NCBI GenBank assembly: GCA_964356785.1
Contig: CAYHIS010000001.1
Coordinates: 16,998-80,997, forward strand
Length of the DNA stretch: 64,000 nt
From: an uncultured Rickettsiales bacterium
GTDB lineage: Bacteria > Pseudomonadota > Alphaproteobacteria > Rickettsiales > CANDYO01
Direction: 5' to 3'
In this document: positions 1-2,743 of the stretch, one piece after another
Layout: each line of letters opens with the position of its first letter
Numbering within the stretch: the stretch's first letter is position 1
Notes under the pieces: model-generated
What the model was told of the DNA's origin: nothing
Database searches by the model: none
Seen by the model: only the letters and a program-made list of their open reading frames with translations
Program-made: the position numbers and the translations under genes

Positions 1-454
1 AGTTTTTTACATCATCTGGAAAAAGATTAGGATTATTGGTCCAAATAAAATGCTGCCAACTAGTATCTAGTTCATTTAACTTAGCAAAATTTACTTTCAT
101 TTTTTCATAATAAATATCTGGCAGAACTGATGGATTTTCCTTTGGAGTAAAGTAAACATGATGGCTTATTAGAGCTATTGAAAATTTATTTTCTATATTC
201 TCAAGATTATCTAATTTATTTAAGCTTGATGAAGTGACTTCCTGATCAGCTTTTTCATAATTCAATCCACTAGATGAGAAAAAATTAGCAAAATCATCTG
301 AATTATATGGCCCATAGCATTTAGATCTAACTACTCCTAAATCAACCAATATAGAATGAAATTCTTCATCTCTAAAAAATTTCTTTATAGGCTTAATATT
401 TACTAAAAATGCTAAAAAGAATATAAAAAGTAAAATAGTCTTTTTATTTTTCAT
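1..454 (-). CDS. DXD-motif glycosyltransferase paralog (GT32/Och1-TcdB-like). Only the N-terminal ~151 codons are present; the gene runs off the window edge.
   Basis: Hand translation of the minus strand from ATG at 454..452 gives MKNKKTILLFIFFLAFLVNIKP...ISHHVYFTP...WQHFIWTNNPNLFPDDVKN. It is colinear with the N-termini of the two upstream paralogs (HH[IV]YF and WQHF[IL]W motifs). It is absent from the ORF track because it is truncated. Confidence 0.7.
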   Translation of the reverse strand, partial: MKNKKTILLFIFFLAFLVNIKPIKKFFRDEEFHSILVDLGVVRSKCYGPYNSDDFANFFSSSGLNYEKADQEVTSSSLNKLDNLENIENKFSIALISHHVYFTPKENPSVLPDIYYEKMKVNFAKLNELDTSWQHFIWTNNPNLFPDDVKN

Positions 455-1634
455 CTAAAAATCTCCAATAATATTTACGAGATGCTTTTTTCTCCACCCA
501 AGTAGCGCAAAACATATCAGCTCCTATTATTTCAAAACCATCACGATGCTTATAACTATAATATATATTATCTTTTCCCTCTGACGATCCATCTTTCATT
601 TCAACTTTAGAAGGATATTCTTTCATTAATTGAAAGAGTTTCTTATCATTCTCTTCAAATCCTTCTTTATTAATTTTGACATAAGTACAATCGCCATTCT
701 TATACCTTGCAAAATCAACATTCAGCACCATCCACGCTGGTAGAATCATATCATTATTTCCGTCTATATTATTTTTTGCAAAATATGAAATCGTAAGTAA
801 TGGCGGAGAGTTAAAATATAATTTATCATACATATTGCAAGGATATTTCATATAGTTAAGTAAATCTGTTCTCTCCAGCCTTGAAATAGCATCGTTAATG
901 ATGGGGTGATTTGGCTTTGAGACTAAAAATGAATTACCATAATAACTAAGTTTCCTTGGCAGCTCTCTTCCAGCAATAAAATCAAATCTTTTCATGAATT
1001 CCATCAAAGAATGAGTTTGATAAAGCTCATAATCCATATCTGTGTATATACCACCAAATTTTTGTAACAGCATTAACCGAAAAATATCTGATGCTTCCAT
1101 AAAATATCCCGTATTTTCATTTCCTTTTTTTATTGAGTCAGATAATTTAGAAAATAGAGGATGATCTTTTAATTCAGATATATTTTTTAGCTTCACTCCT
1201 TTAATTTGTTTAATATGTTCTGGGAAAATAGAATGATCATTAGACCATAAGAAATGTTGCCAATTATCACTTTCAGCATTTAACTTATCAAAATTAGCCT
1301 GCATTTTTTTAATATAAAAATCTAGTAAGGCTTTGGTATTATTATCTTTAACAAAATATATGTGATGAGTAATAGGAGGAATCTTTGAATCTTGGTCGGT
1401 TATATCAACTTTGGTTAATAGTTTCTTGAGAGCTTTTTCTACTATCTCCTTATCCATTTTTTCGTAATCAAACCCCTGTTGTTTAAAAATATCTACCAAA
1501 TCATTATTTGGTTTATAGCAAGGATGTATTAAATTTAAACCTACCATCACTTGATAGGCACTAGCATTAAATTTTGCTATAAAAACATATGCTGCACATA
1601 AAATTATAAATATAATTATTATTATTTTTTTCAT
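444..1634 (-). CDS. Membrane-anchored DXD glycosyltransferase (GT32/Och1-like sugar-binding region, also shared with TcdB-type toxins)
   Basis: The track ORF 444..1646 is TTG-extended. ATG at 1634 overlaps the upstream stop (ATGA). N-terminal anchor KKIIIIIFIILCAAYVFIA. Motifs IPPITHHIYF, WQHFLWSN and ASDIFRLMLLQKFGGIYTDMDYE. Confidence 0.8.
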   Translation of the reverse strand: MKKIIIIIFIILCAAYVFIAKFNASAYQVMVGLNLIHPCYKPNNDLVDIFKQQGFDYEKMDKEIVEKALKKLLTKVDITDQDSKIPPITHHIYFVKDNNTKALLDFYIKKMQANFDKLNAESDNWQHFLWSNDHSIFPEHIKQIKGVKLKNISELKDHPLFSKLSDSIKKGNENTGYFMEASDIFRLMLLQKFGGIYTDMDYELYQTHSLMEFMKRFDFIAGRELPRKLSYYGNSFLVSKPNHPIINDAISRLERTDLLNYMKYPCNMYDKLYFNSPPLLTISYFAKNNIDGNNDMILPAWMVLNVDFARYKNGDCTYVKINKEGFEENDKKLFQLMKEYPSKVEMKDGSSEGKDNIYYSYKHRDGFEIIGADMFCATWVEKKASRKYYWRFLDEK

Positions 1635-2743
1635 GGTATATTCCAAATAAAGTCTAGTTTTTTATTGTTTTTATTATCATACCAGTTACCGCAAAACATA
1701 TCAGCACCGATAATATCATTTGAATCATCTAAATTATTATTACTTAATATAAAATCCTCTTTGGTAATTTCATTATAGTGACATGTATTATTTTTTAGCC
1801 TTGCAAACTCAGTATTAAAAATCATCCGTGAGGGTAAAATAACATCATTATTTCCATCAATGTTATTTTGTTTAAAATAAGCAATTGTTAATAACGGAGG
1901 ACCATTAAAATAGATCATATCATTGGTATAACATGGATACATTATATAGTCTGGAGATTGTTGATTATCAATATTTCTAAGTCTTATCATTTCTTGTAAA
2001 ATAGGATGGTTAGACTTTGCGGCAAAAAATGAATTACCATAAAAGCTTTTCCTTTGAGAAGTTTCTCTTCCACCTATAAAATCAAAGTTCTTTATTAATT
2101 CAAAGAGCCTGGCAGCATTATATATTTCATAATCCATATCATTATATATACCACCAAATTTCTCCAATGCCATTATACGGAGCAGATCGGAGCCTTCTGC
2201 GTAATAAGATTTTGATTGCACGCCATTTGCTATAGATTTAATTAACGTTTCATATAAGATATGATCCTGCAATTCATCTACTAAAGCTACCTTAACGCCC
2301 TTCATATTTTTAACTTCATCAGAAAAGATTTCTGGTTTGTTTGTCCAGATAAAATGTTGCCATTCTAGGGATAGAGCATTCAGCCTATCATAATTAGCTT
2401 TCATTTTTTCTAAATAAAAATCATTAAGTTGTTTTGAATTATCAGAAAAATATATGTGATGAGTAATGGGTGGTATTTTTAGAGCGCTATTTTGAGAAAG
2501 ATTATTTAGTTTATTAAAACTATTTTCAGTAGCTTCTTTATCAGCTAATTCATAATTAATGTTTTCTTGAGCAAATATTTCATCGAAATCTTGAAGTGGT
2601 TGGTAGCAACGTTTGATTAAATGAGCTTTTTGTAAAACTTTATAATATTCTCTTTCAATGAAATATTTTTCAATCCGGTCATATTTCTTAAAAGTAATAC
2701 CTACGCATATAATAAACAGAATAAAAAATAATTTTCTTTTCAT
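1631..2743 (-). CDS. Membrane-anchored DXD glycosyltransferase, paralog of 444..1634
   Basis: 370 aa. Anchor KLFFILFIICVGITF. Motifs IPPITHHIYF, WQHFIWTN and GSDLLRIMALEKFGGIYNDMDYE. Colinear with the neighbouring paralog along its whole length. Confidence 0.8.
   Translation of the reverse strand: MKRKLFFILFIICVGITFKKYDRIEKYFIEREYYKVLQKAHLIKRCYQPLQDFDEIFAQENINYELADKEATENSFNKLNNLSQNSALKIPPITHHIYFSDNSKQLNDFYLEKMKANYDRLNALSLEWQHFIWTNKPEIFSDEVKNMKGVKVALVDELQDHILYETLIKSIANGVQSKSYYAEGSDLLRIMALEKFGGIYNDMDYEIYNAARLFELIKNFDFIGGRETSQRKSFYGNSFFAAKSNHPILQEMIRLRNIDNQQSPDYIMYPCYTNDMIYFNGPPLLTIAYFKQNNIDGNNDVILPSRMIFNTEFARLKNNTCHYNEITKEDFILSNNNLDDSNDIIGADMFCGNWYDNKNNKKLDFIWNIP

Follow-up and report, generated by a model that had tools for sequence, protein, structure and literature searches.

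The stretch of DNA analysed here, which we call the window, comprises 64,000 nucleotides (nt) of an uncultured Rickettsiales bacterium (assembly GCA_964356785.1, contig CAYHIS010000001.1, positions 16,998 to 80,997 of the forward strand), and our subject is a tandem array of genes at its left edge whose products resemble glycosyltransferases of family 32 (GT32). Three of the genes lie wholly or partly within the window, all on the minus strand. Paralog B (1631-2743) is complete and encodes 370 amino acids (aa), paralog A (444-1634) is likewise complete, with 396 aa counted from its ATG, and paralog C (2-454) is represented by the first 151 aa of a 419-aa protein truncated at the window edge. 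A public contig identical to the window DNA (L001; ENA ERZ1292638) extends the array past this edge: here the whole gene of paralog C occupies positions 7030-8289 and is followed by paralog D (8279-9520; 413 aa). The original prediction, made from the window sequence, had described three tandem genes; the tandem arrangement was confirmed as real, but the array has four members in the order B-A-C-D, three of which reach into the window. Neighbouring genes of the row overlap by 4-11 nt or are separated by 1-nt gaps, the overlap between the stop of B and the start of A being 4 nt. No further copies of the family were detected when the rest of the 64-kb window was scanned with the family hidden Markov model (HMM). 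A mechanically called open reading frame (ORF) would place the start of paralog A at a TTG at 1646; this start was rejected, because the ATG is favoured by the family alignment and by a public protein (P0001) that is 100% identical to paralog A.

Pairwise identity between the four paralogs is 47-52% along the entire proteins, approximately 100 positions are invariant in all of them, and the family HMM matched them with E values from 1e-45 to 1e-172. Three motifs had been predicted to be common to the three window genes. In paralog A these are IPPITHHIYF (1353-1382), WQHFLW (1245-1262) and the block ASDIFRLMLLQKFGGIYTDMDYE (1026-1094), which follows the pattern ASD..R...GGIYTDMDYE and contains DMD at 1032-1040; GADMFCATW is encoded at 498-524. 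Paralog B has IPPITHHIYF (2447-2476), WQHFIW (2345-2362), the block GSDLLRIMALEKFGGIYNDMDYE (2126-2194) with DMD at 2132-2140, and GADMFCGNW (1682-1708). The prediction held for these two genes, whereas paralog C carries the variant IALISHHVYF (149-178) instead of IPPITHH.YF, together with WQHFIW (41-58), and its DXD block is past the window edge, so that the third motif is visible in only two of the three window genes. This sharing of motifs is far beyond chance, and the array genes are real and probably encode active enzymes.

All array members (370-420 aa) are built from an N-terminal anchor, a short helical stem, a GT-A domain (GT32/PF04488) and a C-terminal variable loop between two cysteines. 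In paralog A the anchor comprises residues 4-20, the stem carries Cys39, and the loop that accompanies the GT-A core is bracketed by C316 and C376. Paralog B has the same layout with a short variable loop (29 residues), and the anchor of paralog C reads MKNKKTILLFIFFLAFLV.

Catalytic residues of GT32 enzymes are retained in all four paralogs

The GT32 profile PF04488 ("sugar-binding region with DXD") matched paralog A with 45.5 bits and paralog B with 33.1 bits (cut-off 23), and it was present in 83 of 83 database homologs. The PF12919 (TcdA_TcdB) profile matched paralog A with 29.2 bits against a cut-off of 23.6, over profile positions 45-194 of 382 only, and the score of paralog B (16.9 bits) was under this cut-off. 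A weak match to Caps_synth (21.3 bits) was also below its cut-off of 24.5. None of the NCBIfam models matched the window GT32 proteins, and these stand-alone ORFs (370-419 aa) contained no additional Pfam domain.

The AlphaFold2 model of paralog A, built with 44 homologs, has a GT-A fold (predicted local distance difference test score (pLDDT) 91.8, predicted template modelling score 0.91). Foldseek matched the model with a probability of 1.00 to GT-A structures, including the GT32 entries YeGT, PaToxG and Och1. The E values against the PDB were 2e-11 for YeGT, 3e-10 for PaToxG, 6e-9 for SetA, 2e-6 for LtpM and 4e-6 for Och1, with YGT, Lgt1 (1e-5), TpeL and TcdA/B further down. When the family profile was compared with PDB sequences, the E values were 2.9e-8 for YeGT, 1.4e-7 for PaTox, 5e-6 for TcdA, 5e-4 for YGT, 0.34 for Och1 and 0.6 for SetA. 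These profile and fold matches, together with the PF04488 and PF12919 scores, bear out the prediction that the genes encode DXD glycosyltransferases of the GT-A group related to Och1 and TcdB. Och1, PaToxG and YeGT are all assigned to GT32 in CAZy (PMC12312940).

The predicted likeness to clostridial large toxins and Legionella effectors was found as well, but it is no stronger than the likeness to viral glycan-building enzymes. The matches to YeGT and PaTox are remote (identity approximately 16%; TM-score 0.39 when normalised by the query and 0.52 by the target), and in the BFVD set of viral models GT32-like enzymes of giant viruses and phages were matched at the same level (E 2e-10 to 1e-8, TM-score approximately 0.4). 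Since the viral enzymes match equally well, the resemblance to toxins is not specific, and the toxin flavour of the PDB matches is largely due to the choice of GT32-like proteins that have been crystallised.

Mutagenesis of YeGT has demonstrated that the triad D134/R137/D150 and the DxD motif D150/D152 are essential (PMC11152714), and the DxD motif of Och1 is D187-M188-D189 (PMC12312940). The residues D183/R186/D199 and D199/D201 of the window family align with the triad and the DxD motif of YeGT, respectively, and D183, R186 and D199-M-D201 vary little or not at all among the 44 family members. Trp379, located in GADMFCGxW near the C-terminus, is invariant in the 44-sequence alignment; it is probably the counterpart of the essential C-terminal loop Trp of YeGT (W301) and TcdB, although this pairing lies outside any alignment. 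Every one of these residues (D183, R186, D199-M-D201 and W379) is kept in all four paralogs, which we predict to be catalytically intact GT32 enzymes of the retaining type. In YeGT a Trp in the WIG motif at the end of beta-1 stacks on uracil (PMC11152714). The beta-1 strand of the window family, matched by motif and secondary structure rather than through a significant alignment, reads IPPITHHIYF, and a nearly invariant Tyr93 is found where the toxins have this Trp. A HMMER pairing of WQHFIW with the WIG motif was rejected as non-significant (score -3.3).

An N-terminal anchor and a partner enzyme suggest a role in the bacterial envelope

Each of the 82 family members that start with Met (82 of 82) has a tail rich in lysine and arginine (K/R) and an uncharged hydrophobic core with a median length of 15 residues and a Kyte-Doolittle value of approximately 2.9. 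The core is flanked by K/R on both sides, with K/R immediately after it. A cleavable signal peptide or a lipoprotein was ruled out, since neither an A-x-A site nor a lipobox is present and K/R residues stand right after the core. The segment is thus predicted to be an uncleaved hydrophobic anchor. At the other end of the protein, the C316-C376 loop varies from 19 to 87 residues. Conservation is lower here than anywhere else in the domain (0.41 compared to 0.64 in the core), and so is the confidence of the model. This hypervariable loop sits just ahead of the conserved Trp379 loop and is a natural candidate for acceptor recognition.

We estimate a probability of roughly 0.5 that the array encodes anchored retaining glycosyltransferases which build an envelope glycoconjugate step by step. 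Each enzyme would bind a nucleotide sugar and a divalent cation via the D183/R186/D199 triad and D199-M-D201, and the invariant Trp379 loop would close over the donor. The transfer would retain the anomeric configuration of the sugar, as marked by the hydrophobic middle residue of the DxD motif, which is also present in Och1. Acceptor specificity would be set by the hypervariable cysteine-bracketed loop beside Trp379 and by the divergent stem, so that the four paralogs and the neighbouring GT-B enzyme described below would perform different, non-redundant steps. The target would be one membrane-proximal envelope glycoconjugate, e.g., a glycolipid of the lipopolysaccharide (LPS) type or an envelope protein.

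Several observations argue for such a role. The anchor should hold the proteins in the bacterial membrane. The gene set, in which four copies stand with a GT-B gene and stops overlap starts, resembles a pathway, and its order is conserved. The GT-B glycosyltransferase gene (PF13524, CgeB/YkvP-like; 2745-3947, minus strand) lies 1 nt upstream of paralog B and encodes 400 aa with an N-terminal hydrophobic helix of its own and no cysteines. The model of this protein (pLDDT 95.3) has a GT-B fold that is nearest to BGluT, SenB and TarM. Its ortholog, 53% identical, is located directly upstream of a related array (L084), and the PF13524 partner and the GT32 family have at least nine contigs in common; the recurrence of this module in L084 and on the shared contigs supports a pathway-like organisation. 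The PF13524 partner also occurs three times in Candidatus Phycorickettsia trachydisci. In relatives, the GT32-like domain is fused to GT25, GT2, GT11, GT4/5 and DUF3431 domains, which argues for the building of a glycan in multiple steps, and the viral GT32-like enzymes that build glycans match the model of paralog A as well as the toxins do.

Other genes of the window point in the same direction. The window encodes a KdsD/KpsF-like protein with SIS and CBS domains, followed by a single ORF with LptC-like and LptA-like domains (47913-49873), and also BamA, which indicates that the organism makes LPS and possesses machinery for its transport. Moreover, 10 kb from the array there is a second glycosyltransferase cluster (12590-17651), in which every protein has an N-terminal hydrophobic segment. 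It consists of a GT11 gene (12590-13678, plus strand), two tandem GT2 paralogs with 80% identity (13681-14676 and 14722-15714, plus strand), a gene for an unassigned 314-aa protein (15767-16711, minus strand) and a GT10 fucosyltransferase gene (16698-17651, minus strand). The presence of GT10 and GT11 suggests a fucosylated, Lewis-antigen-like glycan.

Other data weigh against an envelope role. The nearest characterised relatives (YeGT, PaTox and TcdA) glycosylate host proteins and not glycans, and in 23 of 39 long proteins of the family the domain is fused to ankyrin repeats, which are typical of host-directed effectors. Beside the array, both here and in three relatives, we found no genes for a flippase, a polymerase, an ABC exporter, a lipid-carrier transferase or sugar-nucleotide synthesis. 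The charges flanking the anchor (approximately 2.9 K/R on the N side; 4.0 K/R and 1.5 D/E on the C side) leave its orientation undecided. Finally, the pattern of cysteines suggests disulfides and hence a catalytic domain outside the cytoplasm, in a compartment that contains no nucleotide sugars in a free-living bacterium.

The evidence for disulfides comes from the co-variation of cysteines and from isolated beta-bridge residues 40 and 265 in the AlphaFold2 model. Of the 44 aligned sequences, 38 have both C39 and C266 and 6 have neither, with four different residue pairs in their place, and C316 and C376 are invariant. Among 248 domains from 225 proteins, C39/C266 are both present in 121, both absent in 89 and truly discordant in 8, and C316/C376 occur together in 105 and are jointly missing from 12. 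Relatives missing one cysteine pair usually miss both, and there are related proteins outside the 44-member alignment in which all four cysteines are lost together. The presence of both Cys39 and Cys266 is associated with the anchor (83/20 versus 21/59; odds ratio approximately 12).

These features can also be read in another way, with the enzymes facing the periplasm. Such "Golgi-like" proteins would be held by a type II signal-anchor, would have disulfide-bonded domains and would glycosylate envelope components after export, supplied with nucleotide sugars from the host cytosol via porins or a transporter. The linear layout of the proteins (short K/R-rich tail, core of approximately 15 residues, stem and catalytic domain) is that of type II proteins, and the paired loss of C39/C266, the invariance of C316/C376 in the 44-member alignment and the association of Cys39 and Cys266 with the anchor are all in agreement with it. 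The net flank charge favours an N-in orientation when acidic residues and the free N-terminus are included, and the window's other glycosyltransferases (GT11, GT10, the two GT2 proteins and the PF13524 partner) are anchored N-terminally as well. Rickettsia prowazekii takes up host UDP-glucose. However, we know of no Leloir-type GT-A enzyme that works in the bacterial periplasm, and several K/R residues directly after a hydrophobic core normally hinder Sec export. The giant relatives of the array proteins, which have no signal, keep the same cysteines (the anchor-less giants of contigs L007 and L008, described below, retain all four), and thus the cysteines do not prove export. The organism also has chemotaxis genes, which speaks against this explanation. 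We regard it as unlikely, and we say the same of its extended form, in which the GT32 paralogs, inserted via Sec and disulfide-bonded, the GT-B enzyme and the nearby anchored GT10, GT11 and GT2 proteins would make up a Golgi-like periplasmic line of a host-dependent bacterium, fuelled by nucleotide sugars of the host or acting on host molecules, with the ankyrin giants as its soluble secreted version.

The array is old and its copies are maintained

The original prediction interpreted the tandem genes as an expansion under diversifying selection on acceptor specificity. When we compared the paralogs, the synonymous divergence (dS) between them was 1.4-2.4, which is saturated, and the proportion of nonsynonymous differences (pN) was 0.30-0.35. 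Due to the saturation of dS, the ratio of nonsynonymous to synonymous divergence is not estimable and its nominal values, well under 1, are uninformative; there was no sign of recent diversifying selection. In the neighbour-joining tree, paralog C paired with gene 1 and paralog D with gene 2 of L084, with the order retained, and paralog A was closer to proteins from other metagenomes (57% identity to P0002) than to its own neighbours. The array therefore looks old, and each copy appears to be maintained as a fixed sub-function under purifying selection.

A recent tandem expansion driven by such selection is very improbable. It would agree with the tandem arrangement of the genes, with the high variability in length and sequence of the loop adjacent to the active site, and with a lineage-specific duplication that we detected in another array (genes 1 and 2 of L083). 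Against it stand the low identity of the paralogs (just 47-52%) with saturated dS, the greater proximity of paralog A to P0002 than to its array neighbours, the same-order orthologs of the C and D types in L084, and the conservation of the catalytic residues. For the window array, this interpretation is already largely refuted.

The family is confined to Rickettsiales-type bacteria and includes giant ankyrin-fused proteins

The NuoG protein encoded in the window is 73% identical to those of two metagenome-assembled genomes (MAGs) labelled Rickettsiales, one of them a 1.55-Mb chromosome (OZ245841), and approximately 63% identical to NuoG of other Rickettsiales, Holosporaceae and Rhodospirillales. 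Full-length relatives of the array proteins were found in about eleven Rickettsiales-type genomes when 185,579 species genomes (one genome per species) were scanned with two peptide patterns, a search that very divergent relatives could escape. They belong to Rickettsiales MAGs, one alphaproteobacterial MAG, Candidatus Arcanobacter lacustris and a Midichloriaceae MAG; proteins from other phyla match in the DXD core only, with 22-35% identity. Stand-alone members nearly always occur in tandem sets of 2-4, and the arrays of the relatives vary in copy number and are found at various chromosomal sites among unrelated housekeeping genes. Phage collections contained no relatives and plasmid collections yielded only one weak match, to a Rhizobium mannosyltransferase; these sets give no support to an origin from mobile elements. 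We found no published description of the family in the literature on Rickettsiales glycosyltransferase effectors, DUF3431, Arcanobacter or comparative genomics. The proteins constitute a variant GT32 clade that is previously undescribed, distinctive in architecture and distribution, and peculiar to Rickettsiales-type bacteria.

This distribution bears on the question of whether the paralogs are housekeeping LPS-core glycosyltransferases common to all relatives. Such an assignment would be compatible with the LPS machinery of the organism and with the weak Caps_synth match. Yet no NCBIfam model recognises the proteins, full-length relatives are limited to the few genomes given above, both the copy number and the genomic location shift between genomes, and no lipid A or core genes adjoin the array. 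Neither orthologs in all relatives, which would have spoken against the original prediction, nor syntenic single-copy orthologs next to waa/lpx genes throughout Rickettsiales were found, and we consider this explanation extremely improbable.

An exhaustive profile search collected 164 cluster representatives at E ≤ 1e-30, many of which are giant proteins of up to 3,030 aa. Besides the ankyrin repeats mentioned above, DUF3431 is present in 12 of the 39 long members, and domains of the GT25, GT2, GT11 or GT4/5 type are found in single members. Two giants come from MAGs assigned to Alphaproteobacteria/Rickettsiales. One of them (L008, 3084-10148; 2,354 aa) has four copies of the domain with ankyrin repeats and DUF3431 interspersed among them; in the other (L007, 7298-15736; 2,812 aa), three copies are interleaved with ankyrin repeats, three DUF3431 domains and a GT25 domain. 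No hydrophobic segment was found in the giant proteins. The neighbours of the L007 giant (5284-7077 and 15859-18512) encode a protein of 597 aa that contains a eukaryote-type MLLE domain (the C-terminal domain of poly(A)-binding protein), a stand-alone GT25 and a protein with ankyrin repeats and DUF3431; the group resembles a eukaryote-like gene island.

The giants raise the possibility that the paralogs, too, are directed at a host. As glycosylating effectors or toxins modelled on PaTox, YeGT, TcdB, Lgt1 and SetA, they would be released and would mono-glycosylate host proteins with host UDP-sugars, the paralogs covering different targets. Among solved structures, glycosyltransferases of host proteins account for all of the best matches by sequence and by fold, paralog A exceeds the threshold of PF12919, and the family is limited to, and patchy in, Rickettsiales-type lineages that are mostly host-associated. 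The ankyrin-fused giants without a hydrophobic segment, one of which adjoins the MLLE protein, and the lack of polysaccharide export genes close to the array are also consistent with it. However, every stand-alone member has an uncleaved anchor of a kind that known glycosylating toxins and effectors do not possess, a conserved GT-B enzyme with an anchor of its own is coupled to the array, and no secretion-system gene adjoins the array. Its age, conserved order and purifying selection imply a slower turnover than in many effector families. Moreover, Tyr93 replaces the uracil-stacking Trp (WIG) of the toxins, and the remote similarity to the toxins (approximately 16% identity; TM-score 0.39/0.52) is equalled by that to viral glycan-building enzymes. 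A function in host modification is a serious alternative, although a less probable one than the envelope role.

Other features of the window and of the flanking DNA

Upstream of the GT-B gene, the minus strand encodes a methyl-accepting chemotaxis protein (MCP; 3947-5566) and a UrtA-like periplasmic binding protein (5571-6857). Both genes are given as context and are not claimed as functional partners of the array. They are tightly packed, with a 1-nt overlap or 4-nt gaps, and the sole intergenic promoter-like site of the gene row is at 6929-6900. Promoter and terminator scans gave counts barely over those of shuffled controls in this DNA of 28-30% GC. At 5502-5531 a perfect 13-bp inverted repeat (GCTAAGCTTATAT..ATATAAGCTTAGT) is followed by a T-run. 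It lies between the gene of the binding protein and codons 12-22 of the MCP ORF as annotated, and may be an internal terminator or attenuator, or else the start of the MCP may be mis-set.

On the other side of the array, paralog D is followed on L001 by a gene for a 233-aa protein with a faint match to the DnaA family. The region L001 10555-16536 has phage-type genes (Bro-N/ANT and HTH_17) as well as genes for a HATPase_c protein, a PRiA4_ORF3 protein and a TPR-containing NB-ARC/STAND protein of 781 aa, and looks like a mobile or defence island.

Elsewhere in the window, prfB (release factor 2; approximately 53012-54122) contains a programmed +1 frameshift site, AGGGGG TCT CTT TGA C, at approximately 53081, and for this reason the ORF list shows just the 224-aa C-terminal part of the protein. 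A 357-aa protein with a Fic/DOC domain and a C-terminal winged helix-turn-helix is encoded at 36379-37452. A 510-aa protein of unusual architecture (19363-20895), with two J-domain (DnaJ) matches and ten cysteines, adjoins a triple-BON-domain protein (18590-19252). No tRNA genes and no Rfam families at gathering score were detected in the 64-kb window. The minimum of cumulative GC skew is at approximately 20-22 kb; gidA (mnmG), parA and parB are located at 54-58 kb, which suggests that the window may be near the replication origin.

Comparison with known systems

GT32 holds both glycan builders (Och1) and host-modifying toxins (PaTox and YeGT), and the window clade sits between them. It occurs in poorly known environmental bacteria of the Rickettsiales type and nearly always in multiples, either as anchored tandem genes or as ankyrin giants with 3-4 copies of the domain. 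If the products build a surface glycan, as we propose, they tell us about the envelope chemistry of a lineage without cultured members. If their targets were host proteins, Rickettsiales would gain its first proposed glycosylating effectors, and if they acted in the periplasm, they would break the rule that nucleotide-sugar transferases are confined to the bacterial cytoplasm.

The best profile and fold matches of the window proteins are the tyrosine-GlcNAcylating enzymes YeGT/YkGT of Yersinia (PDB 8OVT/8OVS) and PaTox-G of Photorhabdus (4MIX). They have in common the GT-A fold, the ASD..R...GG.Y.D.D block, residue for residue, and probably a conserved Trp in the C-terminal segment. In the window proteins these common parts are supplemented by an anchor, a conserved stem, two cysteine pairs and a long variable loop. 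YeGT and PaTox-G are soluble toxins with Rho GTPases as their targets inside the host cells to which they are delivered, whereas the window proteins carry a hydrophobic segment that should anchor them.

The clostridial toxins TcdA, TcdB, TcsL and TpeL (GT44, PF12919) resemble the window proteins in the sugar-nucleotide binding block and are, as predicted for the window proteins, retaining GT-A enzymes. The similarity is limited, as only paralog A passes the PF12919 threshold, over positions 45-194 of 382, and paralog B fails it. The glycosyltransferase domain of these toxins has approximately 540 aa within proteins of approximately 2,400 aa, compared to 370-420 aa for the window proteins, from which the N-terminal four-helix bundle, the autoprotease, translocation and receptor domains, and an equivalent of Trp102 are absent. 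The Legionella effectors SetA, LtpM and Lgt1 likewise have a GT-A fold and come from intracellular bacteria of protists. Their fold match is weak (TM-score approximately 0.3), the sequence match of SetA is non-significant (E 0.6), and they have phosphoinositide-binding or targeting domains and Dot/Icm signals that are absent here, but no membrane anchor.

GT32-like enzymes of giant viruses and phages (e.g., Hokovirus, Klosneuvirus and Pandoravirus) are often multi-domain proteins in which the enzyme stands beside sugar-modifying domains, like in the Rickettsiales giants; they are viral, and are 13-20% identical to the window protein. Finally, Och1, the alpha-1,6-mannosyltransferase of the fungal Golgi (PDB 9N3S), belongs to the same CAZy family by transitivity. 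It differs from the window proteins in that the sequence similarity is non-significant (profile E 0.34) and the fold match is weaker than that of the toxins (TM-score approximately 0.3), and in that it is N-glycosylated and works in the lumen of a eukaryotic Golgi with GDP-mannose. At the same time, Och1 shares with them the D-M-D motif and a type II-like linear layout, and its role in glycan elongation is the role that we propose for the window array.

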